From positions 241,056,001-241,120,000 of the forward strand of contig OZ024741.1 in assembly GCA_964016885.1 (NCBI GenBank): a stretch of DNA of 64,000 bases, written 5' to 3'. This document shows, piece after piece, positions 4,596-60,958 of this stretch. Position 1 is the first letter of the stretch. Each line of letters starts with the position of its first letter. The position numbers were made by a program, and so were the translations under genes. The DNA is from Eledone cirrhosa. Lineage: Eukaryota. The notes below the pieces were generated by a model. The model was not told where the DNA came from. It searched no databases and worked only from the letters and a program-made list of their open reading frames with translations.

Positions 4596-5416
<821 letters not shown>

Positions 5417-5899
5417 TAAAATAATGATGACGACAATGATGATGATACTAAAGACTAATATAAATGAATAGGTCACCAGGTTTACAAGAAATATCACTGT
5501 CCATTGACCTCCAGTCAAAATTGCCAATTTTACCAGGCATTTCTCTATAGAATCACTTTTTCTGATTCTCTATTTAAAGTGATCTGAATGAGTACTTCCG
5601 GTGAGATGGGAGTGAGGAGGAGAAGAAGATTCTACAAGATATATATAATATAACTGCTGCGTTGATTATTTCTAGATTCTTGCTCTTCACAGATCTCCTG
5701 TCTGCTGTCTGATTCTCTAAAAGACAGAAAAAAAAAACAACAAAAGAAAACCAACAACACTAATAATAACAAAATCTCTCAAATCCCTGATGTGGTTCTT
5801 TAGAATCTACTTGTTGGTTATGTTGTTCTGGGCCTGAAATCTTATTCAAGCATGTATTTATACTATAAGAAAATCTGGAGGATGTGATGATGGCAGTAA

Positions 5900-7480
5900 T
5901 ATTGGTGTTGGTGTTACTGGTGTTGGTGTTGGTGTTACTGGTGTTGGTGTTGGTGCTGGTGTTGCTGTTGGTGTTGGTGTTGGTGTTGGTGTTACTGGTG
6001 TTGGTGCTGGTGTTGGTGTTGGTGTTGGTGGTACTGGTGTTTGTGTTGGTGTTGGTGTTGGTGATTGTGTTGGTATTACTGGTGTTGGTGTTGGTGTTGG
6101 TGCTGGTGTTGCTGTTGGTGGTGGTGGTGTTGGTGATTGTGTTGGTGTTACTGGTGTTGGTGCTGGTGTTGGTGTTGGTGGTACTGGTGTTTGTGTTGGT
6201 GTTGGTGCTGGTGTTGGTGTTGGTGTTACTGGTGTTGGTGTTGGTGTTGGTGTTGGTGGTACTGGTGTTTGTGTTGGTGTTGGTGCTGGTGTTGGTGTTG
6301 GTGTTACTGGTGTTGGTGCTGGTGTTGGTGTTGGTGTTACTGGTGTTGGTGCTGGTGTTGGTGTTGGTGTTGGTGTTGGTGCTGGTGTTGGTGTTGGTGT
6401 TGGTGGTACTGATGTTTGTGTTGGTGTTGGTGCTGGTGTTGGTGTTGGTGTTACTGGTGTTGGTGCTGGTGTTGGTGTTGGTGTTACTGGTGTTGGTGCT
6501 GGTGTTGGTGTTGGTGTTGGTGTTGGTGCTGGTGTTGGTGTTGGTGTTGGTGGTACTGATGTTTGTGTTGGTGTTGGTGCTGGTGTTGGTGTTGGTGTTA
6601 CTGGTGTTGGTGCTGGTGTTGGTGTTGGTGTTACTGGTGTTGGTGCTGGTGTTGGTGTTGGTGTTACTGGTGTTGGTGCTGGTGTTGGTGTTGGTGTTGG
6701 TGTTGGTGCTGGTGTTGGTGTTGGTGGTACTGATGTTTGTGTTGGTGTTGGTGCTGGTGTTGGTGTTGGTGTTACTGGTGTTGGTGCTGGTGTTGGTGTT
6801 GGTGTTACTGGTGTTGGTGCTGGTGTTGGTGTTGGTGTTGGTGGTACTGATGTTTGTGTTGGTGTTGGTGCTGGTGTTGGTGTTGGTGTTAATGGTGTTG
6901 GTGCTGGTGTTGGTGTTGGTGTTGGTGGTACTGATGTTTGTGTTGGTGTTGGTGCTGGTGTTGGTGTTGGTGTTAATGGTGTTGGTGCTGGTGTTGGTGT
7001 TGGTGGTACTGGTGTTTGTGTTGGTGTTGGTGTTGGTGTTGGTGTTACTGGTGTTGGTGCTGGTGTTGGTGTTGGTGTTGGTGTTATCGTTGGTGTTGGT
7101 GTTGGTGTTGGTGGTACTGGTGTTGGTGTTGGGGGTACTGGTGTTGGTGTTGGTGTTGGGGGTACTGGTGTTGGTGTTGGTGTTGGGGGTACTGGTGTTG
7201 GTGTTGGTGTTGCTGTTGGGGGTACTGGTGTTGGTGTTGGGGGTACTGGTGTTGGTGTTGGTGTTGGGGGTACTGGTGTTGGTGTTGGTGTTGGGGGTAC
7301 TGGTGTTGGTGTTGGTGTTGCTGTTGGGGTACTGGTGTTGGTGTTGGTGTTGCTGTTGGTGTTGGTGTTGGGGGTACTGGTGTTGGTGTTGGTGTTGGGG
7401 GTACTGGTGTTGGTGTTGGTGTTGCTGTTGGGGTACTGGTGTTGGTGTTGGTGTTGCTGTTGGTGGTGCTGGTGTCAGTA
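5900..7480. repeat. (GGTGTT)n-derived degenerate tandem repeat
   Basis: 6-bp periodic array with TTACT/GTACT/GCT variants. Confidence 0.95.
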
Positions 7481-12852: not shown

Positions 12853-12861
12853 ATATATATA

Positions 12862-12914
12862 TAGGAAAAGAGTCAGGACCCCAACAGCTGAGCTCTGGCC
12901 GTTTCGACAGCTAG
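12862..12914 (-). mobile_element. Hammerhead-family end (ggccagag subfamily)
   Basis: Reverse complement of 14519-14572 with few mismatches. Confidence 0.75.
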
Positions 12915-13111
12915 AGGAATGTCCGCAGGTTTTGGAATATGACGACGATTGAAAATTTAAAAAATAGAATTATCGGGTTTTGCTGTATTTGGCAATTGGA
13001 AAGACCAATGAAAACATAATTTCCTTGATCCAATTTGATGAGCTCCATCTCACTCATTAAGTGAATGAGGTCTGGGCTTTTCTTGATCGACTTAATCTCA
13101 AATGCTATTAA

Positions 13112-13300
13112 TAATTGTTTCTACTTTAGGCACAAGGCCAGCAATTACCCAGTACATTACTGGTACTTTATTTTATCGACCCCGTAAGGATGAAAGGCAA
13201 AGTTAACCTCGGCGGGATTTGAACTCAGACTGTAAAGGGACGTAACTATGCTAGAAAGCATGGCATCTGACCCTCTACCGATACTGCCAATCCACCGCCC
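13112..13300 (-). mobile_element. SINE family B, full length with target-site duplication
   Basis: ctcaaatgctattaataat is repeated at 13097-13115 and 13300-13318. Confidence 0.92.
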
Positions 13301-13502
13301 TCAAATGCTATTAATAATAACTTTGAAAATTGAGTAAAAAACCCTGTAATGGTAAAAAGTCACCAACTGCTGTAGCTACATTTTTTTCCCTCCATAGGAG
13401 TATACCCGATTTTCTAAGCTATTATATATAGCAATCCATTGTGGTTACAGTTATTTTCAGCATTTGTGATTCCTACATTTTCTTAGTATATATATATATA
13501 TA

Positions 13503-13651
13503 TATAACGAAGGAAATGTGGTAAGGAACCAGGTGGACCATAACACACCAAAGTACTCAATACTTAGGGTAGTAGAGTGGGTAATAGGAACGAGTAGGAC
13601 CCCGACGGCTGAGCTCAAGCCGTTTCGACGGCTAATCCTACTCGTTCCTAT
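13503..13651 (-). mobile_element. Hammerhead-family fold-back element, short form
   Basis: Tail tataacgaaggaaatgtgg.., partial hammerhead, and a short inverted copy tcctactcgttccta. Sits in (TA)n. Confidence 0.82.
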
Positions 13652-13723
<72 letters not shown>

Positions 13724-13724
<1 letters not shown>

Positions 13725-14100
13725 TAGAAGGGGTATTTAATTTGTTGGAAGTCAGACAAATATAAATGTTTATAACTGATTTAGAGCACTCAACAGTTTA
13801 GTGGAGTAAATATTCAATGATATTAAATAAATGGAAACTATATTTATAAAACCATAAATAAATGGTTGTTTTTCAATTATTTACATATTCATTTGCATAT
13901 TCACCCATAAGTTTGAAAAATCCTTAATATATTTCCACTATCCAGAGAATATCCAACCGATAAGGTATGATTTTCATGGGTATGTCTCTATTTATAAAAC
14001 AAACTTTTTATTTTATCTGAGGAAAGCGTACCAATGTGTCTTGGTACCCTTGAAATATATATAATAAAATAAATATGGTTTTATAAATATAGTTTCCATT

Positions 14101-14104
<4 letters not shown>
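13724..14104. mobile_element. Fold-back element with hammerhead (family of 2940-3303)
   Basis: Inverted repeat 13826-13856 / 14074-14104. Shares agcactcaacagt with ~2999. Confidence 0.7.
14007..14073 (+). ncRNA. Minimal type I hammerhead ribozyme motif
   Basis: TTTATTTTAT-CTGAGGA-AAGCGTACCAA(tgtgtc)TTGGTACCCTT-GAAA-TATATA-TA-ATAAAATAAA. Confidence 0.8.
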
Positions 14105-14137
<33 letters not shown>

Positions 14138-14518
14138 TTTCTTATTTTACGTCTTTTATATTATTGTTCTGCATCCTCCTGCATTGAACCACCTAGGTAC
14201 TATGACATAACCTGTGTATTTGCTGGCATAGGCGTGCATCTGTGCGCTTATGTTAGTTGATATATTAAATTATCTATATATATATATATATATATATACA
14301 TGCTAAATCTGTGGCCGCCTTCTTGTCTCTCTGCCTTTTCAGCCCATGGATTATATTCCTTTGTTAAATTTCGAATACCTGATGATGTCACCACATACTG
14401 AACCCGGTCATTGAAATGTTCATAGTGTAAAAAACCTTTAAGGAATTACACCAGTCCAGCCTCCTGTTATTTTATAATAATTAACTCCGTACTCGCACCA
14501 CCAACAACACAAACGAAG

Positions 14519-14568
14519 TCTAGCCGTCAAAACGGCCAGAACTCAGCCGTCGGGGTCTTGACTCTTTT

Positions 14569-14572
<4 letters not shown>
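14519..14572 (+). mobile_element. Hammerhead-family end (ggccagag subfamily)
   Basis: ctagccgtcaaaacggccagaactcagccgtcggggtcttgactcttttccta followed by (TA)n. Confidence 0.75.
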
Positions 14573-14644
<72 letters not shown>

Positions 14645-14925
14645 TATAAGTGTGTGTCTGTGTGTGCTTGTATATGTGTTATTGAGGAGATAGTCGGTCA
14701 TTTTGAGTATTTGTCAATTGTTATGTAGGTGGTCAGTAGTTGCGGTCATTGTACAATCTGTGGAGATGTCAACTGTGATGTTTTTTTTTTTGTTATTTAC
14801 TGTTATTTGTTATTATTATTATTTTTTTTTTTTATGGAAAAAATTGAAGATACCTGACTGGATTTAATGTATGGTTTATGTGCCAATGTTGTATATCCTT
14901 GGTTGTTGTGTTGGATGTTGTTAAT

Positions 14926-14967
<42 letters not shown>

Positions 14968-15079
14968 TTGATGATGTTGATGAGGAGAAGGAAGGTCCAG
15001 GGAAGGGGAAGAGGTGCTGGAAGACAACTTTAGAAAATCTTCTTCAATCTATTCATCTTTATAGTCCCATTTTTTGTTG

Positions 15080-18000
15080 TGTGTGTGTATGTATGTCTGT
15101 ATGTGTATGTGTGACCAAGTGTATGTATGTGTGTTGTGTGTGTTGGAGAAGTGTATGTTTGTATGTGTATGTGTGGCCAAGTGTATGTATGTGTGTTGGA
15201 GAGGTGTATGTATGTATGTGTATGTGTGACCAAGTGTATGTATGTGTGTTGTGTGTGTTGGAGAAGTGTATGTCTGTATGTGTATGTGTGACCAAGTGTA
15301 TGTATGTGTGTTGGAGAGGTGTATGTCTGTATGTGTATGTGTGACCAAGTGTATGTATGTGTGTTGGAGAAGTGTATGTCTGTATGTGTATGTGTGACCA
15401 AGTGTATGTATGTGCGTTGGAGAAGTGTATGTCTGTATGTGTATGTGTGACCAAGTGTATGTATGTGTGTTGTGTGTGTTGGAGAAGTGTATGTCTGTAT
15501 GTGTATGTGTGACCAAGTGTATGTATGTGTGTTGGAGAAGTGTATGTATGTCTGTATGTGTATGTGTGACCAAGTGTATGTATGTGTGTTGTGTGTGTTG
15601 GAGAAGTGTATGTCTGTATGTGTATGTGTGACCAAGTGTATGTATGTGTGTTGGAGAAGTGTATGTCTGTATGTGTATGTGTGACCAAGTGTATGTACGT
15701 GTGTTGGAGAAGTGTATGTCTGTATGTGTATGTGTGACCAAGTGTATGTACGTGTGTTGGAGAAGTGTATGTCTGTATGTGTATGTGTGACCAAGTGTAT
15801 GTATGTGTGTTGGAGAAGTGTATGTCTGTATGTGTATGTGTGACCAAGTGTATGTATGTGTGTTGGAGAAGTGTATGTCTGTATGTGTATGTGTGACCAA
15901 GTGTATGTATGTGTGTTGGAGAAGTGTATGTCTGTATGTGTATGTGTGACCAAGTGTATGTATGTGTGTTGGAGAAGTGTATGTTTGTATGTGTATGTGT
16001 GACCAAGTGTATGTACGTGTGTTGGAGAAGTGTATGTCTGTATGTGTATGTGTGACCAAGTGTATGTATGTGTGTTGGAGAAGTGTATGTCTGTATGTGT
16101 ATGTGTGACCAAGTGTATGTATGTGTGTTGGAGAAGTGTATGTTTGTATGTGTATGTGTGACCAAGTGTATGTACGTGTGTTGGAGAAGTGTATGTCTGT
16201 ATGTGTATGTGTGACCAAGTGTATGTATGTGTGTTGGAGAAGTGTATGTTTGTATGTGTATGTGTGACCAAGTGTATGTATGTGTGTTGGAGAAGTGTAT
16301 GTCTGTATGTGTATGTGTGGCCAAGTGTATGTACGTGTGTTGGAGAAGTGTATGTCTGTATGTGTATGTGTGACCAAGTGTATGTATGTGTGTTGGAGAA
16401 GTGTATGTTTGTATGTGTATGTGTGGCCAAGTGTAAGTATGTGTGTTATGTGTGTTGGAGAAGTGTATGTTTGTATGTGTATGTGTGACCAAGTGTGTGT
16501 ATGTGTGTTGGAGAAGTGTATGTTTGTATGTGTATGTGTGACCAAGTGTGTGTATGTGTGTTGGAGAAGTGTATGTTTGTATGTGTATGTGTGACCAAGT
16601 GTATGTATGTGTGTTAGGTGTGTTGGAGAAGTGTATGTTTGTCTGTATGTGTGACCAAGTGTATGTATGTGTGTCGGAGAAGTGTATGTCTGTATGTGTA
16701 TGTGTGACCAAGTGTATGTATGTGTGTCGGAGAAGTGTATGTCTGTATGTGTATGTGTGACCAAGTGTATGTATATGTGTTGGAGAAGTGTATGTCTGTA
16801 TGTGTATGTGTGACCAAGTGTGTGTATGTGTGTTGGAGAAGTGTATGTCTGTATGTGTATGTGTGACCAAGTGTGTGTATGTGTGTTGGAGAAGTGTATG
16901 TCTGTATGTGTATGTGTGACCAAGTGTGTGTATGTGTGTTGGAGAAGTGTATGTCTGTATGTGTATGTGTGACCAAGTGTGTGTATGTGTGTTGGAGAAG
17001 TGTATGTCTGTATGTGTATGTGTGACCAAGTGTGTGTATGTGTGTTGGAGAAGTGTATGTCTGTATGTGTATGTGTGACCAAGTGTGTGTATGTGTGTTG
17101 GAGAAGTGTATGTCTGTATGTGTATGTGTGACCAAGTGTGTGTATGTGTGTTGGAGAAGTGTATGTCTGTATGTGTATGTGTGACCAAGTGTGTGTATGT
17201 GTGTTGGAGAAGTGTATGTCTGTATGTGTATGTGTGACCAAGTGTGTGTATGTGTGTTGGAGAAGTGTATGTCTGTATGTGTATGTGTGACCAAGTGTGT
17301 GTATGTGTGTTGGAGAAGTGTATGTCTGTATGTGTATGTGTGACCAAGTGTGTGTATGTGTGTTGGAGAAGTGTATGTCTGTATGTGTATGTGTGACCAA
17401 GTGTGTGTATGTGTGTTGGAGAAGTGTATGTCTGTATGTGTATGTGTGACCAAGTGTGTGTATGTGTGTTGGAGAAGTGTATGTCTGTATGTGTATGTGT
17501 GACCAAGTGTGTGTATGTGTGTTGGAGAAGTGTATGTCTGTATGTGTATGTGTGACCAAGTGTGTGTATGTGTGTTGGAGAAGTGTATGTCTGTATGTGT
17601 ATGTGTGACCAAGTGTGTGTATGTGTGTTGGAGAAGTGTATGTCTGTATGTGTATGTGTGACCAAGTGTGTGTATGTGTGTTGGAGAAGTGTATGTCTGT
17701 ATGTGTATGTGTGACCAAGTGTGTGTATGTGTGTTGGAGAAGTGTATGTCTGTATGTGTATGTGTGACCAAGTGTGTGTATGTGTGTTGGAGAAGTGTAT
17801 GTCTGTATGTGTATGTGTGACCAAGTGTATGTATGTGTGTTGGAGAAGTGTATGTCTGTATGTGTATGTGTGACCAAGTGTATGTATGTGTGTTGGAGAA
17901 GTGTATGTCTGTATGTGTATGTGTGACCAAGTGTGTGTATGTGTGTTGGAGAAGTGTATGTCTGTATGTGTATGTGTGACCAAGTGTATGTATGTGTGTT

Positions 18001-18430
18001 GGAGAAGTGTATGTCTGTATGTGTATGTGTGACCAAGTGTATGTATGTGTGTTGGAGAAGTGTATGTCTGTATGTGTATGTGTGACCAAGTGTATGTACG
18101 TGTGTTGGAGAAGTGTATGTCTGTATGTGTATGTGTGACCAAGTGTATGTACGTGTGTTGGAGAAGTGTATGTCTGTATGTGTATGTGTGACCAAGTGTA
18201 TGTACGTGTGTTGGAGAAGTGTATGTCTGTATGTGTATGTGTGACCAAGTGTATGTATGTGTGTTGGAGAAGTGTATGTCTGTATGTGTATGTGTGACCA
18301 AGTGTGTGTATGTGTGTTGGAGAAGTGTATGTCTGTATGTGTATGTGTGACCAAGTGTATGTATGTGTGTTGGAGAAGTGTATGTCTGTATGTGTATGTG
18401 TGACCAAGTGTATGTATGTGTGTTGGAGAA
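15080..18430. repeat. 53-bp minisatellite, about 60 copies
   Basis: GACCAAG recurs at 16812, 16865, 16918 and so on. Unit gaccaagtgt(a/g)tgtatgtgtgttggagaagtgtatgtctgtatgtgtatgtgt. Confidence 0.97.
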
Positions 18431-18493
18431 AGCAGTTCACTCCTACTTTTCATTGACACTACCACTTTCTGATATGGAAATATATGTCCATAT

Positions 18494-18539
<46 letters not shown>

Positions 18540-18637
18540 TTTATATATTTGCACATATATGCACACTTATATAATTGCATGTATCTTACCTTTTTTGATA
18601 TTAGCTTAAAAATTAAAAAACAAAAAAGTGTTTGTTT

Positions 18638-18716
<79 letters not shown>

Positions 18717-19079
18717 ATACATATATATATATATTTGTGTGTGTATATGTATGTATGTATATATATATATATATATATGCACACACACACACACATATAT
18801 GTACATATATATATATACATATACATACACATATGTATATATGCATGTGTACATGTGTGTTTGATGTATTCATATGCATGTATGTAGTATACAAATTTAT
18901 AAACATATTAGAGTTGATGTTGTTGTCACGCCCCACAATTACAGAGCAGAGTCCATACTCGGTGTTTTACTCTACCCTATCAATTATGGGACCGAGGCAG
19001 ATCAAAGGGGACAACTAACGTTATTGCTGGAGTGTCTTGTAATTAATGTTTAATGAAACACTATTATAGAATGACATAT

Positions 19080-20340
19080 TGTGATGGTGGTGGTGGATGG
19101 TGCTGGTGATGGTGGTGGTGGTGGTGGTGATGGTGGTGGTGGCGGTGATGGTGGTGGTGGTGGTGGTGGTGGTGGTGGTGATGGTGGTGGTGATGGTGGT
19201 GGTGGTGATGGTGGTGGTGGTGGTGGTGGTGATGGTGGTGGTGGTGGTGGATGGTGGATGGTGCTGGTGATGGTGGTAATGGTGGCGGTGATGGTGGTGG
19301 TGGTGGTGGTGATGGTGGTGGTGATGGTGGTGGTGATGGTGGTGGTGGTGGTGGTGATGGTGGTGGTGATGGTGCTGGTGGATGGTGGTGGTGATGGTGG
19401 TGGTGGTGATGGTGATGGCGGTGGTGGATTGTGCTGGTGGTGGTGGTGGTGGTGGTGGTGGTGGTGGTAGTGGTTGTCGTGTGGTGGTGATGGTGCTGGT
19501 GATGGTGGTGGTGGTGGTGATGGTGGCAGTGATGGTGGTGGTTGTCGTGTGGTGGTGGTGGTGATGGTGATGGTGATGGTGGTAGTGATGGTGGTGGTTG
19601 TCGTGATGGTGGTGGTGATGGCGGTGGTTGTTGTGAAGGTAGTAGCAGCAGTGATGGGGGTTGTGGTGTGGTTGTGGTGGTGGTGGAAGTGTGTTGGTGG
19701 TGGTGGGTTATTGTTGTGTGGTGGTGGGGTGATGATGGTGGCAGTGGTGGTCATGATGGTGGTGATGGCAGGTGGTGGTGGTGGGGAGTTGTCGTGGTGG
19801 TAGTGGTGGTCATGGTCATGGTGTTGGTTGTGGTGGTGGTAGTAGTAGAAGTAGTGCTACTGGTGGTGGTGGTGGTGGTTGTCGTGGTGGTGGTTGTGGT
19901 GATGGTCATGGTGTTGGTTGGGGTGGTGGTAGTAGTAGAAGTAGTGCTACTGGTGGTTTTGTGGTGGTGGTGGTTGTCGTGGTGGTGATGGTCATGGTGG
20001 TGGTGTTGGTTGTGGTGGTGGTAGTAGTAGAAGTAGTGCTGGTGGTGATGGTGGTGGTGGTGGTGGTCGTCGTGATGGTGGGGGTGATGATGGTAATGGT
20101 GGTGGTGGTTGTGTTGGTGGTGTTGATGGTGGTAGCAGTAGTAGTAGTACTGCATGTGGTGGTTTTGTGGTGGTGATGGTGGTTGTTTTGCTGGTGATGG
20201 TGACGATGGTCATAGTGGTGATTATGATGATGATGGTGGTGGTGGTGGTGTTGGTGGTGGTGGTGGTGGAGGTGGTGGTTCTGGTGGTTGTTTTGGTGAT
20301 GATCATGATGGCAGTGGTGGTGGTGGTTCTGCTGCTGGTG
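19080..20340. repeat. (GGT/GAT)n low-complexity repeat
   Basis: Direct inspection. Confidence 0.95.
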
Positions 20341-20379
20341 AAGTGAATGACAAGAAGGGATGGGAGAAGCATGATGGTA

Positions 20380-20986
20380 GATAATGAGAGATAGGGGGAA
20401 GAATAGGAAGGAAGGAAAATATGAAGAATATAAAAAGGAAGGAACTTTGGCAGAAAGAAAGAAAATGAAAGAGAGAGAGAAATATAGAAAGAGAGAGGGA
20501 GAGAGATAGGGGGAGACAGGGAAGAAAGGAATGTAAGAGAAAGAGAGGAGGGAGAAAAGAAGGGAGGGGAGAAAAAAAAGAAGGGAGGGGAGAAAAAAGA
20601 GTAAGAGAGAGGGGGAGAGAGTGGGGACAGTAGAGAAAGAAAGAAACAGAGAGAGAGATAAAGAGAGAGAGAGAGAGATAAAGAGAAAGAGAGAGCAAGA
20701 GAACTGGAGAAATTTGAAAAGATTTAAAGGAAGTGCGAGTTGTGGGGTTGTCATGGATAAAATAAAGAAAAATCAGGGTTTGTATGAGCAATGTTTGTAG
20801 AGAGTAAGGGATGAAAGTGAGGAAGAAAGACAGAACTCTAGGGAGAGGGAAAGAAGAAATATAGAGAAGGAAATAGAGGAAGGGAAACAAAGGAGAAAAG
20901 AAAGAGAGAGAAAGAGTTGAAAAAAAAGAAGACATCACTTTAATGAAAAAAAGAAAAATAAGTATGAAAAGAAAGAGGTCTGAGGG

Positions 20987-21056
<70 letters not shown>

Positions 21057-21062
21057 GAGAGA
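20380..21062. repeat. Purine-rich (GA) low-complexity tract
   Basis: Direct inspection. Confidence 0.9.
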
Positions 21063-21078
21063 ATGGTTGATATATATA

Positions 21079-21157
21079 CAGAGTGTCCACAAAAAACGTA
21101 TACACACTTCAGCAGGATTCTAATAGAAGATTGTATACATTTTTTGGGGAACACCCT
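21079..21157. mobile_element. Tiny Tc1-type MITE
   Basis: TIRs cagagtgtccacaaaaaacgtataca / tgtatacattttttggggaacaccct. Related to 45913-46012. Confidence 0.7.
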
Positions 21158-21207
21158 CTCTCTCTCTCTCTCGCTCTCTCTATATATATATATATATACA
21201 CACACAT

Positions 21208-21722
21208 ATCATCATCATCATCATCATCGTTTAACGTCCATATTCCACGCTTGCATGGGTTTGGACGGGAATTGTCCCACTTGAGGCAAGAGTGGTTGTC
21301 TTGCTCGTATAGGACTGTCTGGCGGGTTTTCTACGGCTGGATGCCCTTCCTAACACCAACCACATTTACAGTGTGGGACTGGGAGGTTTTTACCATGTTA
21401 CCTACACGGCCACATTACAGCGTGGACTGTGTGTTTTTTTTGTCGTGACACCTACATGACCTCATTTGTTTCGGGCTGGATGTTGTGGTACCAACATAAC
21501 TTTACATTGAAAGGGGTGGTGTGGATGGGGTGTGGGCGTAGTGGGACGGGGCTGTATTTTGTTAGAGGTGCCTACTGACTGTAGTAGGTTTCACTTTGTA
21601 CTTAGGTAAAGTGGGTCTTCTCTATTACTGTGTAGCGCCAAAGATCTTGGTCCAGTGACATTGTCTTGGAGAGGTGTAAGTGTGTGAAGTCGGAATTTAT
21701 CAAGTCATCCCAGGTTTTTCTG

Positions 21723-21726
<4 letters not shown>
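21208..21726 (-). mobile_element. RTE LINE 3' fragment (family of 49431-51319)
   Basis: Reverse complement of ~50800-51319, with an (ATG)n tail. Confidence 0.92.
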
Positions 21727-21753
<27 letters not shown>

Positions 21754-21754
<1 letters not shown>

Positions 21755-21877
21755 GGTTATGTAATAAACAACATAAGATAATTATTTCGTTTACCAGTGG
21801 TTTCTTGAAAGCAAACAAAATTTGCTTTTAGTCATCAGAATGAAAAAATCCTGGTGTATTTATTGACTAGATTTTAA

Positions 21878-21880
<3 letters not shown>
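21754..21880 (-). mobile_element. Short hammerhead-containing element in (TA)n
   Basis: Reverse complement of 46375-46500. Hammerhead at 21785-21845. Confidence 0.8.
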
Positions 21881-21937
<57 letters not shown>

Positions 21938-21952
21938 TTATATTTATATATA

Positions 21953-22150
21953 TATAACGAAGGAAGTGTGGTAAGGAACCAGATGGACCATAACGCACTA
22001 GAGTACTCAATACTTAGGGTAGTAGAGTGGGTAATAGAAAAAATGTTTGACCCTGACGGCAGAATTCAAGCCATTTCGACGGCTATTTCAGTCCAGAAAT
22101 AGCCGTCGAAATGGCTTGAGCTCTGCTGTCGGGGTCAAACATTTTCCTAT
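21953..22150 (-). mobile_element. Hammerhead-family fold-back element, medium form
   Basis: Tail plus ~57-bp arms centred near 22092. Confidence 0.85.
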
Positions 22151-22360
22151 ATATATATATGTGTGTAAAAACACTAACACATACAATTATTACATTTATA
22201 TATAGATATGTATGTATATATATATACCTATATATATATACCTATATATGTAACTATGTATATTGGTGAAAATGTGACACACACAATACCACACATTCTC
22301 ATTTGCAAACACACACACACACAAACGCACACATATATATATACATGCACACATTAAATG

Positions 22361-23586
22361 ATATGTAAAAGAAACCAAAGAATACTTACATACTCAAATA
22401 GTCTTTATTCACTTACAATGTTTCATCCTCACCTTTTGGCAGGAATCATCAGAGCCTAATAAATACAGTGTTGAGTATAAGCTCCACAAAAACCTAGTCA
22501 CACGAACAATCAGAATAAAGATAGGGAGATTGGAGATAGCTAACAAAGAGGTGCATGCTGGGGTTGTTAAGCATTACTGCTAAATGCCAAGGCACAAGCG
22601 GATTCAACAAGATGAAGATATACCTTGTGTATGTATATTATGGTGGTGATTCGGATTACTGTGGTCTTTCGGGATGTACCAAAAGGAACTCTTTACGCCT
22701 ATATATAGGCTACCGAGATCCTACTCACTCGTGTTACTAGGGACTAGCGCTTGTAATCTTTTGCTTTCTCTATGTGCTCATAACATATAACTTTTTCTTA
22801 ATTTCTTAAATATTTTTAATTCTTTTTAATTTTTAATTTTATTATATTATTATATTATTTTATTATCTTATCTTTTATTACTTTAGTATCCGAGGTTAAC
22901 TTTGCCTTTCATCCTTACGGGGTTGATAAAATAAAGTACCAGTGATATACTGGGTAATTGCTGGCCTTGTGCCAAAAGTAGAAACAATTATAATATAATA
23001 TAATATATTTTATATAATTTTTTTTTTTTATTTATTTAGTTTTTTTAATTTTATTATTTTTCATTATATTTTATTAATTGTTTTTAATTATTTTACTTTA
23101 TTTTAATTTATTTTAATTTATTTTAATTTATTTTATTTTATTTTATTTTATTGTCTTTATTATTTTTATATATTTTTTATTACTTTATTATAATTTATAT
23201 TATGTTTTAACCTTTGCCTGTATTTTTTATGTATTTTTTATGTATTTTTTATGTATTTTTATGTACTTTTTGATGCTTTTGCACTTTTTGCTTTTACATT
23301 CTGTATTTTTTGTGTGCCATCTATTATATCTTCATCTTGTTGAATCCGCTTGTGCCTTGGCATTTAGCAGTAATGCTTAACAACCCCAGCATGCATCTCT
23401 TTGTTAGCCATCTCCAATCTCCCTATCTTTATTCTGATTGTTCATGTGACTAGGTTTTTGTGGAGCTTATACTCAACACTGTATTTATTAGGCTCTGATG
23501 ATTCCTGCCAAAAGGTGAGGATGAAACATTGTAAGTGAATAAAGACTGTTTGAGTATGTAAGCGTTCTTTGGTTTCTTTTGCATAT
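22361..23586. mobile_element. Fold-back element with ~260-bp arms (22361-22622 / 23325-23586), a hammerhead in each arm
   Basis: CT-CTGATGA-ttcctgccaaaaggtgaggat-GAAA-CATTG-TA-AG at 23493-23535, mirrored at 22404-22463. The spacer holds a SINE B piece (~22885-22990). Confidence 0.8.
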
Positions 23587-24609
23587 AACGACTCTGTTCT
23601 TGTACATTGAGCTAACACAATACTGCCATAATACAGTACGGTGCATGTGCTTATGCATATATGCTCTGTGCTTTACATAAATAAATACATTAAATGATAT
23701 ACATTTCACATATTTTTAAAAGTCACTTTCAATTGTTAGTTTTCATTTCATTTCTCTTGTCAAAGAAAGGGAAGATGAAAGAAAATATGAGAAAGAGAGG
23801 GGGAATGAAATATGTAGAGAGATGGTAATAGAATACGATAGAGAAAAACTGAGAAAAAGTGGAATTTAAAGAGATAGAGGCACACAGCAAGAGAGTGAAA
23901 AATAAAAGTAGAAGAAAGCAGTTCATTTAAAATTTGAAGATGTGTTATTCGTAGGCAATGTTATCCATTATTTAATATACATTTATTGATATGTGTGTGT
24001 ATTGTGTATTGCTAAAATAAAGAGAATAAGACATTTATTCACAAAAACAGTTTGTTTCAAAACCCTTATTCTGTAAACTTCTATAGTAACTCACAGTGTA
24101 TCTAATTTCAAGAGAAAATACACAGATTTTCTAATTTATTTATCAAACATTTTGTAATATGTGCTAAAATATATAAGTATTGTTACTTTCATAAAATACA
24201 TCATCAGATATCTCTGCTAGTTTAATAATAAAATATTATATTCTGGTCTTAGTCAAAAGGTTGAAAACAATAATTTGTAAATCTGATAGTTCCTGCTGCC
24301 CATCGAATATGATGACTCATAGTGTTATATAAACACATATACACCTGAGCCATCTAAAATGACAGCTATATTTTTTTCTTGTTAATAAGATATATTACTT
24401 GTCCAGTTAATAATTTGCATATATGTATGGACTGTATAACCAATGTAGAAGTCATAGGGTCACTGTTGTGATATTATGGCTTGACTTGGGTACTTCAAAC
24501 TTGGCAGAGCCTATCTCTTCACAAGGTTTAAATACAGCCAATTTCTTCCAAAGAAAGAGAAAGAGATGATGTGTGAGAGAGGAAGTGAGAAAGAGATATC
24601 AAGAAAGAA

Positions 24610-24752
24610 ATTTACCTCAGTGTGTTGGACTGGTACTTTTTTTAATTGACCTTGAAAGGATGAAAGGCAAAATTGAGCTCAGCTGGATTTGAACTCAGAG
24701 TAGAGTGCCAGGATGAATATACAAAGGATTCTATCTTATATTCTAATGACTG
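24610..24752 (-). mobile_element. Old SINE B copy
   Basis: ctggtactt..gaaaggatgaaaggcaaa..ggatttgaactcag. Confidence 0.7.
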
Positions 24753-25526
24753 AATGGTTTACTTCTAGTCAGGACCGGATTTATTGAAAGGGTGTTGGAG
24801 ACAAAGGCCGTGACAGCTCATCAAACAGCCCCCACATACACAAACACTCACACTCTAAACAGGTACTCTTTTTCAAGCAGGGCCTCCACTTCAAACAGAG
24901 CTCCTGCTACCTTTTAACAATGGGGCTCTGATCATAAACATAATTTTATCTTTCAGACAGTCACATTTTAATTCTCTCACTCTCAATCACCTTTTCTCTG
25001 TTTGCCACGTACTGCAGTTTATTAAACACTCTATCTTTTCATTCATTTACATTTTGCTTCTACCATAAACAGGGGTTACTTTGAATGTACTTTGAAAAAA
25101 AACAATAAAAACTCTTTATGCCACCATAGTTTCTTACATTATATTATTTTGGAAAAAAGTCTTGAAAAATTGAAACTTTCATTATCATTTAAACTTTCTT
25201 TTAAAGTATTTCCTTTAAATGACTTTAAATTCCGTAAAAATATGTAAATTATGTAGGCAACACACAGACGCTGAAATATTGACTTTCAGTCTGATTAAAG
25301 GGAATAAATGTGTGTTTTGTATATATTTTTACATTTGATGCATTCTTAATATGTTTTTAATTGATTCTGTAAATTACATTTCAATTGGATGTATGGTTCA
25401 GCTACAAAATCCGTGTAATTCAGACTTTTTGTCAATCCTGCCAAAATTGAATGTTTAAATATGTCCCACGTTTTTAGTATTTGTTTCTTGCATACTGTCT
25501 TTTTATTATTATTATTATTATTATTG

Positions 25527-25732
25527 TAGGGTGGTGGATTGCCAGTATCGGTAGAGAGTCGGACCCCGTGCTTTGTAGCAAAGAGTTACGGCCCTTTATG
25601 ATCTGAGTTCAAATCCCGCGGAGGTTAACTTTGCCTTTCATCCTTACGGGGTCGATAAAATAAAGTACCAGTAATACACTGGGATAAATGCTGGCCTTGT
25701 TCCAAAAGTAGAAACAATTATTATTATTATAA
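25527..25732 (+). mobile_element. SINE family B, full length
   Basis: A-box-like tggattgccagtatcgg, B-box gagttcaaatcc, (ATT)n on both sides. Confidence 0.92.
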
Positions 25733-25986
25733 TTATCTATGATATATAGCAGAAATTTTATATATTTCCTGGGTTACATATGCCGTACATCCACTTTCCC
25801 TATCAAATATTCAATTTTACAACCAAACAATTCACTTATTTGCTGTTTTGAAGTGTAATCATATATATCACTCCATTAGTTTTATGTATAATTAAATATT
25901 CTATTTGTCATAATTTTTGTGAAATTTATACTTCAATTAAAATATCAATAAAATGTTTTATACATATACCTTTTACTCCGTAATGT

Positions 25987-26051
25987 ACAGTTATGTTTAG
26001 TATTCAAAGTAGCTCCGATGTGAGGCTACTTTGAAGACTAAACATAACTGT
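25987..26051. other. 65-nt near-perfect hairpin
   Basis: acagttatgtttagtattcaaagtagc / gctactttgaagactaaacataactgt, one mismatch. Confidence 0.8.
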
Positions 26052-26567
26052 CTTAACTATATAGCGAATTAAGGTATATTTACAATTTTTTGACAAAAGT
26101 TGTATATGATAGGGCTTCTTTGAATTATCTCTATATTAACAACATCTGTCAACAAAAAATTGAGCTATGTAGCGTAAAAGATGCAAAATTGATGCAAATC
26201 CTTCAAAGTCAACCTGGTTTATGGAACTATCATTAGTTCACTCTCTATTTGTTGTTTGACAACCTCTTAATTAGACATTAACTGTTTACTATGACAGCAG
26301 ATTAAGTGTTTCAGTGCCACAGTTGAAAAGAGGGTAATAACCCTGAAATATCATATTGAAATATACTGGGTAAAACATTACTTTGTTCTGTTTTATTTGT
26401 CATCATTTGCCCTTTGTATTTTTCTACCGCCTTGTGCCGGTCTTTTTAAAATTATTGTTTTTTTATTATAAATATCTATATCTATATCTATATATCTAGC
26501 TCTCTCTCTATCTCCTTCTCTCTCATGCTCTCTCTCCCCCTCTCTATAAATATATATATAAATATAT

Positions 26568-26920
26568 AATCATCATCACCCTTGTCAATCCTTTTTCCAT
26601 GCTGGTATAGGTGCGATAGGTTATCATATTCTGAGACAAGATAGATCAGACGATCACTATAAATAATAAGTGAAAAAAAATTTGGTAAAGTAAAATTTCA
26701 CAGTGGTGATTACAATCCTATCCATCCATCCATATCCAGTTTTGGTCTTTAAGATGGTGCGGTTGTCCCGTACTCTGAGGTAGGCAACACCAGGCAATAT
26801 CTTACAGCTGCTCTCCATGAATTTCTGTCCATAGTATCGGCATCCACCAAGTTCCATTTATACAAATCACTCTTCATACAGTCCAGCCACGTCTTCCTTG
26901 GTCTGCCGCAATCTCTAATG
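26568..26920 (-). mobile_element. Old RTE 3' fragment
   Basis: Minus strand reads GRPRKTWLDCMKSDL, then a 3'UTR and an ATG-repeat tail. Confidence 0.6.
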
Positions 26921-27035
26921 TAAGTGAAATATATTTCATGCCTGACTTGAATATACAGAAGATGATATGAGAGTTGTAATGAAGAAAATAAGTGGATATA
27001 ATTAAAATCAGAGTGTGTGTGTGGTGTGTGTGTGT

Positions 27036-27300
27036 CATTATCATCGTTACTGTTTTACCTCCATTTTTTCTATGCTTACATAGGTTCAATGGCTCTTTTT
27101 CAGCAGAGCTTCCCTCCACTTACTGCATCCCTTTGTTATTTCCTTTGCCAGGTTCAATATTTTGAGAACCACTTTGGTCCAAGGTTGGAAACCTTGGTCT
27201 TCCTCTACTGCAGCTTCCTTCCTTTGCAAACTCCTGAGACTACTTCATCCAATAATCACAAACCATATATATCACATGTCCATACCAGCACAGTCTTTTC
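27036..27300 (-). mobile_element. Old RTE 3' fragment
   Basis: WYGHV motif at ~27275-27290 and an RTE-like tail. Confidence 0.55.
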
Positions 27301-27464
27301 TCTTATGTTATCAATATGTAAACATGTCTCACATTCTTTCTTTCTTTCTCTTACTTCTTCCCCCTCCTTCTCTCTTAACCCTATTCTCAAAATCTCTCTT
27401 TCTCTCTAGCTCTCTCTCTATATATATGATTGTAAAATACCTTCTCTGAGTATATATATGTGCA

Positions 27465-27620
27465 TGGGTGGTGAATTGGCAAAGTCATTAGAATGTTAGA
27501 TAGGCTACTTTCAGGAATTTGTTCCAGCTCTTTGTGCTCTGAGTTCCAAACTTGCTAAGGTCAACTTTGCCTTTCATCCTTCCAAGGCTGATAAAAAAGT
27601 ACCAATCCAGTACTGGGATT
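27465..27620 (+). mobile_element. Old SINE B copy
   Basis: gggtggtgaattggc..gagttcc..tttgcctttcatcctt. Confidence 0.7.
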
Positions 27621-27989
27621 GATTCTTACTTTATATCTCTTCTTCACTATCAATGATTCTCCTTTTCTTAGCTGTTAGCTGTTTTCAGACCTTGGTGAGA
27701 CGATGGGCTTCACTAGGTTTAAAATGCCCATGACATGCTGTATGTCACTACAGTACCCTTATGACTCCATCAAGAGTTACAAATCCATCCATCCATACAT
27801 GTGCAGATATGTACCTATATAATCATAGTTTATGTTCTTAACATTATTATTATTATTAGACTTATCTTTATTGTGTCTTGTTACTGCATTATTGAGTACA
27901 GCTCTGCCTGCCTTGGGTATGTGCAGAGTTGTTTTTGGTGTTGTTATTTCTATTGCATTGAGAGTACTCTTCATAATATTTGTGCAGTT

Positions 27990-28200
27990 CCTAGTATCAT
28001 TAGAACATCAGATAACATATTTTGCAGCATATAGTTATGACCCTTTATATTCTGAGTTCAAATCTCACCAAGGTTAACTTCACCTTTCATCCTTACGGGG
28101 TTGATAAAATAAAGTACCAGTAATACACTGGAGTTGATTTAACTGACTTTTCTCTCCTCCAAAATAGTTGGCCTTCTGCCTAAATCAGAAACCATAATTA
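27990..28200 (+). mobile_element. SINE B copy
   Basis: B-box and body match the family. Confidence 0.8.
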
Positions 28201-28204
28201 TTGT

Positions 28205-28460
28205 TGTCATCATCATCATAATCATCATTTTTATATTATTTTTTTCATGTTTGCATGAGTTAGTTGGGTCTTCCCCAGCTAAACATCTTTCTAGTCTCTT
28301 TATTTTGACATCTCCTTTTTGAGGTTCAGCAACATGAGATCAACTCAAACCACTTCTGCATGAATTTCTTCAGTCTTCCTTGGCCTAACTTTATGTCATC
28401 ATCCCTTCTACTTTGAACTCCTGGCATTTCTTCACCCAATTATTATCATTTATACACATG
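28205..28460 (-). mobile_element. Very old RTE 3' fragment
   Basis: Similar to the reverse complement of 45660-45900 (ctggcatttcttcacccaat, catgtttgcatg). Confidence 0.45.
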
Positions 28461-29299
28461 ATTATCATTTATACACAAAATTTAATTCTTTTTATATTTC
28501 AGTTTTTCTCAGTGTAGTATGTGTATGTGTGTAGTATACACATGTGTGTAGCAGTTTTTAGTGCAATAATATTTGCAATGAATTGAATACAGTTTGACAT
28601 TGTTGAAATACATAGTAAAATCTTTTTTTAAAGTCACTACAAATCTGTTGTCTTCTCACATAATTACAAGGTTAAATTTGATGATTTGCTTCTTTGATTA
28701 TTCTAGTATGTTCTCAAATTTCATAATGGGTGGAGTTTGAAATTTTTGATGTTGAACCTTCTGCAAACATTCCTTCAGTCTCACCACCTCCTATAACTGC
28801 AGTTGCATAACATGTATTGCAGCCAGCTGATTATAACTGCATGTTTTTGCAGTGTGAAATTTCCTAATTGCATTTGTAGCAAAATATTCTGTCTCCACCT
28901 TATCTAATTGACTTGCACTGAAAAATCAGAAAATGTTTCAAATGTCAGCTTTCAACTAGAATTGAACCTATATTTTCTTCACTGATTGCAGTATTTCATT
29001 TCAGTTTTCATTTTCATTAAAAAATCACTGTGAACAATATGCTGAGTTGAACATGAATAATTATTATTTGATGAATTAATTTGTCAAACAAATGCATATC
29101 ATGCAAAATAGAATTGCCATTTCTCTTTAGTTCTACTTTGTATTGGATATAAATAGCATTTGAATATAGTCTTGTGCTCCATACATAAGACAAAAAGAAC
29201 TGAAAAAACCATGGAAAAAATGGCCAGCCTCTTCTTTTCAGCCAACTTCTGGAAATCTTTATAGTTTCAGTGCATTATATTACATGGGTCCTTTAAACA

Positions 29300-29339
<40 letters not shown>

Positions 29340-29344
<5 letters not shown>

Positions 29345-29521
29345 CGAAGGAAATGTGGTAAGGAACCAGGTGGACCATAACGCACCAAAGTACTCAATAC
29401 TTAGGGTAGTAGAGTGGGTAATAGGAACAAGTAAGACCCCGACGGCTGAGCTCAAGCCGTTTTGACGGCTAATTAGCCGTCGAAACGGCTTAGGCTCAGT
29501 CGTCGGGGTCTTACTTGTTCC

Positions 29522-29524
<3 letters not shown>
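29340..29524 (-). mobile_element. Hammerhead-family fold-back element, medium form with no spacer
   Basis: Tail plus ~50-bp arms centred on ggctaattagcc (~29472). Confidence 0.85.
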
Positions 29525-29562
<38 letters not shown>

Positions 29563-29917
29563 GTATTCATGATTTGTGAAGGATACATATGAGGGGAATA
29601 TATATAATTTTTATCAGGTATCTATATTTGAAATTTTTGTTAAATTTTAATATGATACTGAAATGAAATGTGTTATTATATTCTATACAGATTGTCTCCT
29701 GTTAAAGTTTGATATGTTCTATTGTACATTTATATATATTTAGGTATATATGTATGTGTATGTATGTCATTAACTATTTTGTAATGATTAAATGCTCAGA
29801 TTTATTCTTTGAATTTTTCTTTGAGCTTATTTTGGGAGACAAGACGCATGATCAAGATTATCTAAAACATGACATCTATAACTCTGAATGTAATATATAT
29901 ATATATATATATATATG

Positions 29918-30402
29918 TAGATAAATCTACCAAGAGTTTACGGTAGTGTCCAATCCGTATGAAGAACTCAATGTAATCCGGATATCATGGAAAGAAGAGA
30001 TGCATTCAAAAATCACTTTCGGTGAAAGATAAACGGAATACAGAGTCAAGATAAAATATTAAAAAAATAATGAATAAAACAGTGAAACAGTTCCTTATAT
30101 TAAACAAAAAAAGTTCATTATTTAACGATCGTTTCTAGGACATATATGTGTTAGAATTGGCATGCATATTCAACAGATCTATGTACAAAATTATACAAAA
30201 TTATACAAACTATCAAATTTAATATACATACCAACACATATATATGCCGTCTTCAGAAATAATCTGTATAATTTTGTACATAGATCTGTTGAATATGCAT
30301 GCCAATTCTAACACATATATGTCCTAGAAACGATCGTTAAATAATGAACTTTTTTTGTTTAATATAAGGAACTGTTTCATTGTTTTATTCATTATTTTTT
30401 TA

Positions 30403-30411
<9 letters not shown>
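29918..30411. mobile_element. Fold-back element (arms ~30051-30196 / 30265-30411) with a long-stem-II hammerhead
   Basis: Minus strand 30262-30118: TTATTT-CTGAAGA-cggcatatatatgtgttgg..ctaacacatatatgtccta-GAAA-CGATCG-TT-AAATAA. Confidence 0.75.
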
Positions 30412-30440
<29 letters not shown>

Positions 30441-30445
<5 letters not shown>

Positions 30446-31336
30446 CGAAGGAAGTGTGGTAAGGAACCAGATCCACCATAACACACCAGAGTACTCAATA
30501 CTTAGGGTAGTAGAGTGGGAAATAGGAAAAAGTATGACCTCCGATGGTAGAGCTCAAGCCGTTTCGACGGCTATTTCTGGACTAAATTAGAATTTTTAGC
30601 CTGGTGAATAAATAGCCGAACTTGTCAAGGGGTACTTCCTTATATGGGAAGATTGTAGTTGTCAAAAGGATTGGTTAAAATTTGTTGTAAACACAAATAA
30701 GTCTATCATGGCATTTGGTGAGAGGAAGGGGTGGCTGAACTTGCCTGTAGAACAATAGGGGAGTGAGTGGAGCCGGTCAAGCGTTGAAAGTGATATGTAT
30801 ACAGCAGATTCTAAGGATAGTGTATGAAATGGAGGAGGGAGGTTATAGAATAGGTAATTCGAATGAGAGTAGGAGACAATAAAAGATAATAGAAATAAAT
30901 AAAAAAATATATATAAAATTAGATATTCATTTCTCACTATCTAATTTTATATATTTTTTTTTTCTTTCTTTCTGTTATCTTTTATTGTCTCCTACTCTCA
31001 TTCGAATTACCTATTCTATAACCTCCCTCCTCCATTTCATACACTATCCTTAGAATCTGCTGTATACATATCACTTTCAATGCTTGACCGGCTCCACTCA
31101 CTCCCCTATTGTTCTACAGGCAAGTTCAGCCACCCCTTCCTCTCACCAAATGCCATGATAGACTTATTTGTGTTTACAACAAATTTTGACCAATCCTCTT
31201 AACAACTACAATCTTCCCATATAAGGAAGTACCCCTTGACAAGTTCGGCTATTTATTCACCAGGCTAAAAATTCTAATTTAGTCCAGAAATAGCCGCCGA
31301 AACGGCTTGACCTCTGCCGTCGGGGTCATACTTTTT

Positions 31337-31341
<5 letters not shown>
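30441..31341. mobile_element. Hammerhead-family fold-back element, long form (arms 30522-30925 / 30938-31341, plus ~80-bp tail)
   Basis: ~400-bp near-perfect palindrome with a 12-nt spacer, (TA)n on both sides. Confidence 0.88.
31231..31326 (+). ncRNA. Type I hammerhead with U3-A8 variant core (mirror at 30537-30633, -)
   Basis: ACCCC-TTGACAA-GTTCGGCTATTT..AAATAGCCG(C/T)C-GAAA-CGGC(ttgacctct)GCCG-TC-GGGGT. Confidence 0.7.
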
Positions 31342-31427
<86 letters not shown>

Positions 31428-31429
<2 letters not shown>

Positions 31430-31500
31430 TGTTTCTACTTTTTGCACAAGGCCAGCAAATTATCCAGTACATTACTGGTACTTTATTTTATCGACCCCGT
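31428..31500 (-). mobile_element. SINE B 3' fragment with long (AAT)n
   Basis: Family match. Confidence 0.8.
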
Positions 31501-32077
31501 AATAATGATTAAATGCTCAGATTTATTCTTAGAATTATTCTTTGAGCTTATTTTTTACATATTTAAAACAATTGTGAGAATAATTCTTATTACAGATGGA
31601 ACATAAGATACCAGTCTTAACTCTCAGGAAGTGACAACGCATCACATTATGGCATAGGGCTCCAATATTTAATTTTGTATCAGAAATTTTATAGTCAAAA
31701 AAGAATGGTTACAAACAACTGCCAAATAATTTCAACACCAACACCACCACCGCCGTCGCCGCCGCCAGCACCACTACCACAAACAATTTAGCCAAATACA
31801 AACCAACGGCTGCAGCAACACTATCACTATAGTACTACTATCGCGTCACCACTGCCACCGCTGCATCATCGCTACCACCACTATTCCCTCACTACCTCCT
31901 GTTAATAGAGGGATGGTAGTAGTGCCACTACACATGACTAGAAGCGAGGAAGGCATCAAAAGATATAAATAGACTGGGTTAGTGACCCGGTCAAACAGCT
32001 AACAACAACACCATGTATCTCTAAACTCTCTCAAAATGTTTAGTTTAAACGATGTCATATCTAAACTATAATATAAT

Positions 32078-59200: not shown

Positions 59201-59355
59201 ACCTCTACCATCACTACAACCACCAACACCACCACCATCACCAACACCTCCACCATCACCACAACCACCCCACACCACCACCATCACCAACACCACCACC
59301 GTCACCACAACCACCCACACCACCACCATCACCAACACCACCACCATCACACAAT
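56245..59355. repeat. (CAC/CAT/CAA)-derived tandem repeat array
   Basis: Direct inspection. Confidence 0.95.
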
Positions 59356-60827: not shown

Positions 60828-60884
<57 letters not shown>

Positions 60885-60958
60885 GCCGTCGAAACGGCTT
60901 GAGCTCTGCCGTCGGGGTCGTACATTTTCCTATATATATATATATATATACATATATA
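60262..60958. repeat. (TA)n field containing a short hammerhead-family copy at 60879-60932
   Basis: gaaatagccgtcgaaacggcttgagctctgccgtcggggtcgtacattttccta. Confidence 0.9.

Follow-up and report, generated by a model that had tools for sequence, protein, structure and literature searches.

How does an element that moves by reverse transcription come to lie in the genome facing itself, as a palindrome between two runs of TA? The question is raised by a stretch of 64,000 nucleotides (nt) from Eledone cirrhosa (assembly GCA_964016885.1, contig OZ024741.1, positions 241,056,001 to 241,120,000 of the forward strand), the whole of which is called the window here. Four hairpin-like copies of one family lie within it, and they are the head-to-head ends of an abundant Penelope-like element (PLE). 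A preliminary description of these copies, at 13503, 21953, 29340 and 30441, had proposed that reverse transcription is primed in (TA)n, truncates at variable depth, snaps back and copies to a defined end. Our analysis of further copies in the genome points to a different origin, in which each hairpin would consist of two cDNAs, one primed on either side of a break in (TA)n, that mostly stop at the capped 5' end of the RNA, and are joined end to end. We give this reading a probability of roughly 60%.

Layout and abundance of the copies

The four copies in the window share the layout that had been claimed for them. A tail of 78 nt follows (TA)n and leads into an arm; beyond the turn, an inverted arm runs to TTCC|TAT and a second (TA)n. 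The sense strand of the element is the opposite of the strand on which the tail reads out from (TA)n. Depths into the element are given on a ruler, the natural long copy L154, on which the tail ends at x7 and the tailless side at x85, the ribozyme is predicted to cut at about x102, and x145 is the T of CTGGACT. Copy 1 has its tailed arm at 13506–13636 (− strand, which is the element sense), comprising the tail and the 3' half of a hammerhead to a depth of about x135, and a perfect tailless inverted arm of 16 nt at 13636–13651 (+), which ends in TTCCTAT; (TA)n flanks both outer sides. The tailed arm of copy 2 (21956–22089, −) reaches x139, and its tailless arm (22090–22150, +; 61 nt) reaches x145, begins with AGTCCAG and holds 6 nt without counterpart in the tailed arm, a junction that recurs in the genome and is written 139|145 below. 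In copy 3, a tailed arm at 29343–29472 (−) meets a tailless arm of 52 nt at 29473–29524 (+) in a symmetric turn at AATT. Copy 4 is far longer: its tailed arm (30444–30924, −; depth x482) carries 3' untranslated region (UTR) and pseudo-long terminal repeat (pLTR) sequence, a whole hammerhead with several mutations, and the tail, and its tailless arm (30925–31341, +; depth x496) aligns with the other over 405 nt at 96.5% identity. The first 14 nt of that tailless arm (30925–30938) are not in the tailed arm. The earlier estimates of arm length were about 17, 57, 50 and 400 bp.

Exact matches to 25-nt end motifs number 4245 for the tailless and 3965 for the tailed end in a genome of 3.0 Gb, and reversed-pattern controls gave none. 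Sixty evenly spaced 10-kb tiles (600 kb on contigs C1–C4) held 19 clusters, which extrapolates to some 100,000 natural products of the family, as an order of magnitude. Two sets of insertions were used for counting. End positions were taken from 188 paired tailed–tailless insertions; depths and pairings were taken from a set not selected for depth, made up of end-motif matches in genome order on contig C1, bystander loci, the tiles and the window.

Fixed ends and their pairing

The outer ends of the insertions fall at two places. The tailless end lies at x83–88 in 168 of the 188 paired insertions and the tail end at x7–9 in 164. Of the exact ends, 134 of 157 on the tailless side and 127 of 156 on the tail side abut a run of TA. 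The earlier claims of fixed ends and of priming in (TA)n gain support, as does the likeness drawn there to the tailed and tailless pLTRs of Penelope. The stop had been placed roughly 20 nt past a GUC site, and we find it 17 nt (TTCC) to 20 nt (TTCCTAT) past GUC. Both ends are UAU|UU sites in the 5' leader of an open reading frame (ORF), 78 nt apart. In most of 30 loci found through the ORF start the tail passes into the leader of the ORF, an arrangement seen in tandem copies, and thus both insertion ends are internal sites of the RNA.

The two kinds of end nearly always occur together. In the depth-unselected set, 129 insertions pair a tailed with a tailless arm, one pairs two tailed arms and about four pair two tailless arms, with 36 tailed and 25 tailless arms being single or unresolved. 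If each end were free to choose its site, about half of the pairs would join like with like; the near-absence of such pairs implies that the two ends are coupled.

The depth wall and the extra base

At the other side of each arm, towards the turn, the preliminary description had seen a graded series of arm lengths. This does not extend to the genome, where depths pile up at a single wall. The deeper arm ends at x144–145 in 60 of the 129 paired insertions, at x139–145 in 86, and at or before x145 in 107, with 9 reaching past x152; furthermore, summed contig depth drops about 20-fold across the wall in sequencing run X1. Within the supposed series, copies 2 and 3 reach the wall, copy 1 is short-armed and copy 4 is of the rare long kind. 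In copy 4 the wall is at 31281 (+), the A of TTT-A-GTCCAG, and at 30583 on the other arm, which places it inside the helix II loop of the predicted hammerhead. Three subfamilies have the wall at the same AGT, despite differing loop sequences.

Junctions at the wall often contain a base that the template does not explain. Where both arms end at x145 with one base between them, this is C or G in 137 loci and A or T in 12, the template base being A. A second subfamily has single-base junctions at 306 loci, and among the first 50 listed, 43 have C or G and 7 have A or T (counted by eye). In the studied loci the untemplated next base is C in 27 cases, G in 14, T in 6 and A in 19, a tally that counts palindromic joints twice and in which A is also the template base. 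Some junctions have C on both arms. Pattern searches across the wall returned totals of 4009 and 5554, and the first 100 matches listed for the former had C in 46, G in 51 and T in 3 by eye; these figures are indicative only, as the patterns end in a not-C letter and so drop some classes of junction. The context TTT-A-GTC appears to resemble an initiator, and no downstream promoter element was found at +28 to +32 on comparison with its consensus by eye. Untemplated G at 5' ends has been interpreted as copying of the cap in L1 and SVA (PMC4859970). Read from DNA alone, x145 is likely to be a capped transcription start.

The competing explanation that survives best keeps the two cDNAs and dispenses with the cap. 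It takes the wall as a pause of the reverse transcriptase (RT), or as an uncapped, processed RNA end, in the helix II loop, with the extra C or G coming from terminal transferase activity or end-joining. The presence of G besides C after the wall is what this would lead one to expect, as are the many arms that end 1–6 nt before the wall and the location of the wall in a structured region. However, it does not readily account for the same AGT in subfamilies whose loops differ, for the excess of C over T (27 to 6), for C on both arms of some junctions, or for the initiator-like context, and we consider this explanation rather unlikely. A 7-nt imperfect microhomology was rejected as an explanation of the 139|145 junction, which also occurs in a subfamily without it (L050).

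One cDNA or two

A second explanation, that of the preliminary description in its essentials, needs only one cDNA. Primed at the tail, it would fold back and copy itself, and the endonuclease would resolve the product at TTCC|TAT, with later inversion of the spacer giving those forms in which the tailless arm is deeper. An arm made by snap-back cannot hold sequence that is absent from the first arm, and the relative depth of the two arms is therefore informative. Among the 129 insertions the tailless arm is deeper in 67, the tailed arm in 51, and 11 are equal. Where the gap is at least 5 nt the counts are 52 and 32, and above 50 nt they are 9 and 1. At seven loci (L151, L152, L158, L159, L161, L351 and L354) the tailless arm exceeds the tailed one by over 1 kb, and in the window it does so by 6 nt in copy 2 and by 14 nt in copy 4. 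Long copies picked by similarity may have most of the ORF in either arm. Spacer inversion would not produce the orientation of the 139|145 junction, which is the same way round in 17 of 20 cases (p = 0.003). Furthermore, four arms (L256, L093, L101 and L116) stand head to head with members of other TA-targeted families with no TA between them, the partner carrying its own hammerhead in L256 and L093, and the 25 lone tailless arms (single or unresolved) of the depth-unselected set also count against a single cDNA.

The joints themselves look like products of end-joining, with 0–2 nt of microhomology or short inserts. Inserts are present in 76 of 180 joints, and of the 104 without inserts 46 have no microhomology and 13 have at least 3 nt, a slight enrichment over the 5% expected. 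Most junctions are unique.

Other data suit self-copying better. Rare variants are common to both arms far more often than in shuffled data (41, against a mean of 5 and a maximum of 12 in 200 shuffles of 140 insertions), the tailed arm is deeper or equal in 62 of 129 insertions, copy 3 turns at a perfect AATT, and the slight enrichment of microhomologies of at least 3 nt points the same way. Published accounts also favour it, as junction palindromes have been read as self-priming (PMC3846280) and the tail ascribed to endonuclease resolution (PMC8557442), in passages of these papers. At 17 diagnostic positions, the arms of one insertion show five or more differences in only 2 of 127 cases, which together with the shared variants indicates that a single source RNA or locus is the rule. 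Overall, variable truncation followed by snap-back is contradicted as a general mechanism by the deeper tailless arms and the cross-family hybrids. It may apply to insertions that are symmetric or deeper on the tailed side, copies 1 and 3 among them, and as the account of the whole family we regard it as improbable.

A third explanation regards the short palindromes as a few non-autonomous master elements that were copied whole, so that junctions are inherited. Recurrent junctions (139|145 in 13 of 129 insertions, and the single-base C/G junctions in 137 loci and in most of the 306) would follow naturally, and inheritance would also account for the one-way orientation. Against it, junctions are mostly unique, and the same junction turns up in different subfamilies, each time between two arms that agree with the subfamily in question, which makes this very unlikely. 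The possibility that the palindromes are fold-back artefacts of assembly or library preparation, a known risk in AT-rich repeats, with no read or contig spanning copy 4 in raw Illumina reads of two other samples, is negligible in view of the arms' average divergence of 5.5% per site, the unmirrored flanks, the variation of junctions between copies, the fixed biological ends at thousands of loci, and strand-switch joints at 30580–30583 in those same raw reads (each from one or two read starts, the reads coming from other copies of the family).

A proposed two-ended model of insertion

In the two-cDNA model, the endonuclease would cut both strands within (TA)n, and each 3' ...ATA end would anneal to one of the UAU sites. 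In most cases a single RNA, or RNAs from a single source locus, would supply both sites. These primers would then be extended by the RT over 60 or 138 nt to the cap, which would be copied as C, and host end-joining would fuse the two cDNA 3' ends head to head. Long arms and partial tandems would be explained by longer transcripts, through their 3' pLTR, or by a jump at the cap. In vitro, a PLE protein from an anole cuts and extends both strands, with two internal start sites that bracket the tail (PMC11167929, in part), and the two-ended model may be seen as extending that result.

Several observations weigh against this model. Most of the 129 paired insertions belong to a single subfamily on contig C1; pairs that exceed about 1.5 kb are under-represented among them, and a few may be duplicates. 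The capped start is a reading of genomic DNA. The extra base is not always C, as G comes second in the studied loci and appears at least as frequent as C after the wall of the third subfamily among the first 100 matches listed (by eye). The x145 arm of 139|145, the commonest junction, lacks the C, and this junction is left unexplained. Upstream pLTRs, where present, are mostly deeper than x145, so that other templates or jumps are needed. The overall excess of deeper tailless arms is not significant by itself (p = 0.17), and recombination between the arms after insertion could flip spacers. The four cross-family hybrids could be nested insertions with deletions, and the shared rare variants are also compatible with snap-back or gene conversion. 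Lastly, no match naming an RT was returned by Pfam for copy fragments and 8 homologues or by a profile search of PDB.

A wider proposal is that PLEs integrate by obligatory two-ended priming, in which a paired enzyme would start from two fixed internal sites on a single capped RNA, one for each broken DNA end, and the resulting strong-stop cDNAs at the cap, comparable to those of retroviruses, are either joined or jump. About four fifths of the paired insertions here would then be the head-to-head joined form, and a jump to the 3' pLTR would give full-length and partial-tandem copies. We hold this tentatively, at somewhat less than even odds. If true, the tail, the inverted pLTR and the partial tandem would be explained in a single scheme, and the promoters of PLEs could be mapped from genome sequence alone.

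Identity of the element

Long arms extend across the 3' UTR and enter an ORF that carries RT motifs (YRDD) and, towards its C-terminal end, those of GIY-YIG, and the repeat unit measures about 3.1 kb from one tailless end to the next. L151, a broken copy, has YRDD and IY..YIG and is 45% identical over 250 amino acids to a homologue of 677 amino acids; among the Atlas neighbours of that homologue, GIY-YIG is found in 26–50% of members. L151 also has RWR, DKT, CNCPDRSTC and CNLC...CKH, kept in 63, 77, 72 and 76 of 84 homologues, respectively, and a single cysteine between IY and YIG, which means that the CCHH motif is absent. The PLE identity claimed earlier is borne out by this ORF and by its clade motifs.

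The features of an endonuclease-positive (EN+) PLE are present: by its motifs, a single ORF with RT followed by GIY-YIG; a pLTR or partial tandem with an inverted 5' copy and a one-sided tail; and a predicted hammerhead in the pLTR. For the Hydra clade we used the motif set of PMC8557442 (section 11). DKT, the CxCX5C linker, CxxC and CxH, the lack of CCHH, and the (TA)n target are all found, and we count RWR in L151 as agreeing with RWK and the unit of about 3.1 kb as agreeing with a length under about 3 kb. Judged by these motifs, the family fits the Hydra clade of C-terminal endonuclease-positive PLEs. The Neptune clade does not fit, as it requires a CX2-5CxxC linker, CCHH and DKG, in place of which L151 has CxCX5C, no CCHH and DKT. 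Non-LTR retrozymes do not fit either, as the copies are head to head and 107 of 129 reach no further than x145, without the 5' half of the hammerhead.

The predicted hammerhead ribozyme

The predicted ribozyme is a type I hammerhead at 31225–31338 (+) in copy 4, with a U3–A8 core (UUGANAAG at 31236–31243) and a GAAA box; its cut is predicted after 31321. Loop III is a palindromic GAGCUC in most copies. The core boxes are kept and N7 varies (C in 33, A in 16, T in 3 and G in 3 of 59, with 1 variant and 3 unmatched), and the helices were judged by eye across subfamilies. An Rfam scan of 13000–32000 found no hammerhead and only miRNA-type hairpin matches below gathering scores, and the complete core fold was not recovered by unconstrained folding. 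The U3–A8 core is a known variant of PLE hammerheads (passages of PMC4209133 and PMC3088659).

The preliminary description had tied the fixed end to the ribozyme. One part of this stands, since TTCC is precisely where the predicted extended helix I would close; the other does not, since the cut fails to set arm depth. One tailed and four tailless arms (n = 129) end at x100–104, too few for the cut to be the arm stop, and that candidate was dismissed. A leader starting at the wall would carry only half a ribozyme, which fits with a ribozyme that does not set arm depth. As a separate observation, the upstream pLTRs of L183, L180 and L175 begin near x181–183 at TTCGGCTATTT, in the 5' strand of helix II, and this may be a second truncation hotspot.

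Relation to known systems

Tailed-plus-tailless inverted insertions in (TA)n have been described for PLEs (PMC8557442, PMC3846280), where EN+ elements also have head-to-head arms, a tail at one end, partial tandems and a microsatellite target. The passages of these papers that deal with the layout contain no depth wall, no extra C and no count of one-tailed-one-tailless pairs, and they interpret it as self-priming or endonuclease resolution, from which our two-cDNA reading departs; the origin of the inverted ends is stated there to be an open question (PMC8557442). Elements of the Hydra clade share with ours the unit of about 3 kb, the single RT and GIY-YIG ORF, RW(R), DKT, the CxCX5C linker, CxxC and CxH without CCHH, the hammerhead in the pLTR, and the (TA)n target (PMC8557442). 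They differ in that RWK is replaced by RWR in copy L151, and that here a U3–A8 hammerhead core with a long helix II and a very high copy number are found. The tail is about 78 nt, compared with the 30–40 bp quoted for PLEs (PMC8557442).

The anole element, Poseidon PAc, belongs to another clade, and the work on it does not account for inverted structures (PMC11167929). It resembles the present family in that both strands are cut and extended at AT-rich DNA, two internal starts bracket the tail, and ribozyme cleavage is unnecessary, but no difference in start site was seen there between the strands (PMC11167929). In the present family, by contrast, the two ends are unlike in nearly every insertion. 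Non-LTR retrozymes are also short, non-coding PLE-derived units with type I hammerheads, but they form head-to-tail tandems with whole ribozymes, in contrast with the head-to-head copies here, which mostly have the 3' half (bioRxiv 10.64898/2026.07.22.740005, in part).

Our reading of the junctions separates models of mechanism and speaks against self-priming, and the family yields exact coordinates that can be tested, namely two priming sites and one start site. In twin priming of L1, as in the model proposed here, two target-derived primers give an inversion, but the L1 pieces derive from separate portions of the RNA. The arms of the present family are copies of a single stretch, begun at two fixed sites, and form a palindrome. 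Twin priming is named in PMC4859970, in passages where an untemplated G is also taken as the mark of a cap. For PLEs, neither twin priming nor a cap-marked stop was found in titles and the openings of abstracts, a search that left subscription journals and older Penelope reviews outside. Neither the wall nor the extra C nor the pairing rule appears in the consulted parts of this literature, and the clade and the layout are known.

Further arms and neighbouring repeats

Other arms of the family are dispersed in the window. Single tailless arms lie at 4938–4992 (+; depth x139) and at 60878–60933 (+; x140, with (TA)n on both sides), and one of a divergent subfamily lies at 12861–12913 (−). A further tailless arm lies at 14521–14573 (+) and is joined to another hammerhead-bearing repeat (14300–14520). 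In this chimera (14300–14573) a repeat with a CUGAUGA-core hammerhead is joined in the same direction to the tailless arm at a wall-like AGT. It looks like a template jump between families, and a similar chimera is found in L186. Long copies in L345 (2492–4108) and L360 (2190–4129) jump from x139 or x56 deep into the 3' UTR (x891, x472), and these discontinuities are possible template jumps or deletions.

Other families have comparable structures. A second, unrelated family at 29915–30411 has the same layout (a tail of about 136 nt, an arm, a turn and a tailless inverted arm), adjoins copy 4 across a single (TA)n, and recurs in L115 and L069. A third, at 13722–14110 beside copy 1, has a tail of 85–98 nt, an inverted end and 156 matches in the studied loci; it carries a canonical CUGAUGA...GAAA hammerhead with a UAUAUA loop and is the partner in the hybrids L256 and L093. 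A fourth TA-targeted family (L101 at 1350–1496; also L043, L038, L164 and L022) has TA at 44 of 44 outer ends, with inverted and direct pairs about 420–750 bp apart.

The remaining repeats are of other types. A very common repeat resembling a short interspersed nuclear element lies at 41012–41250 and 13100–13300, with a 120-nt tandem duplication at 41012, and a minisatellite at 15137–18430 comprises 61 copies of a 53-nt unit with 94% matches. Large (TGGTGT)-type arrays lie on opposite strands at 5876–7475 and 56246–59350; they are 71% complementary over about 1.45 kb and are likely to belong to the same class of simple repeat.

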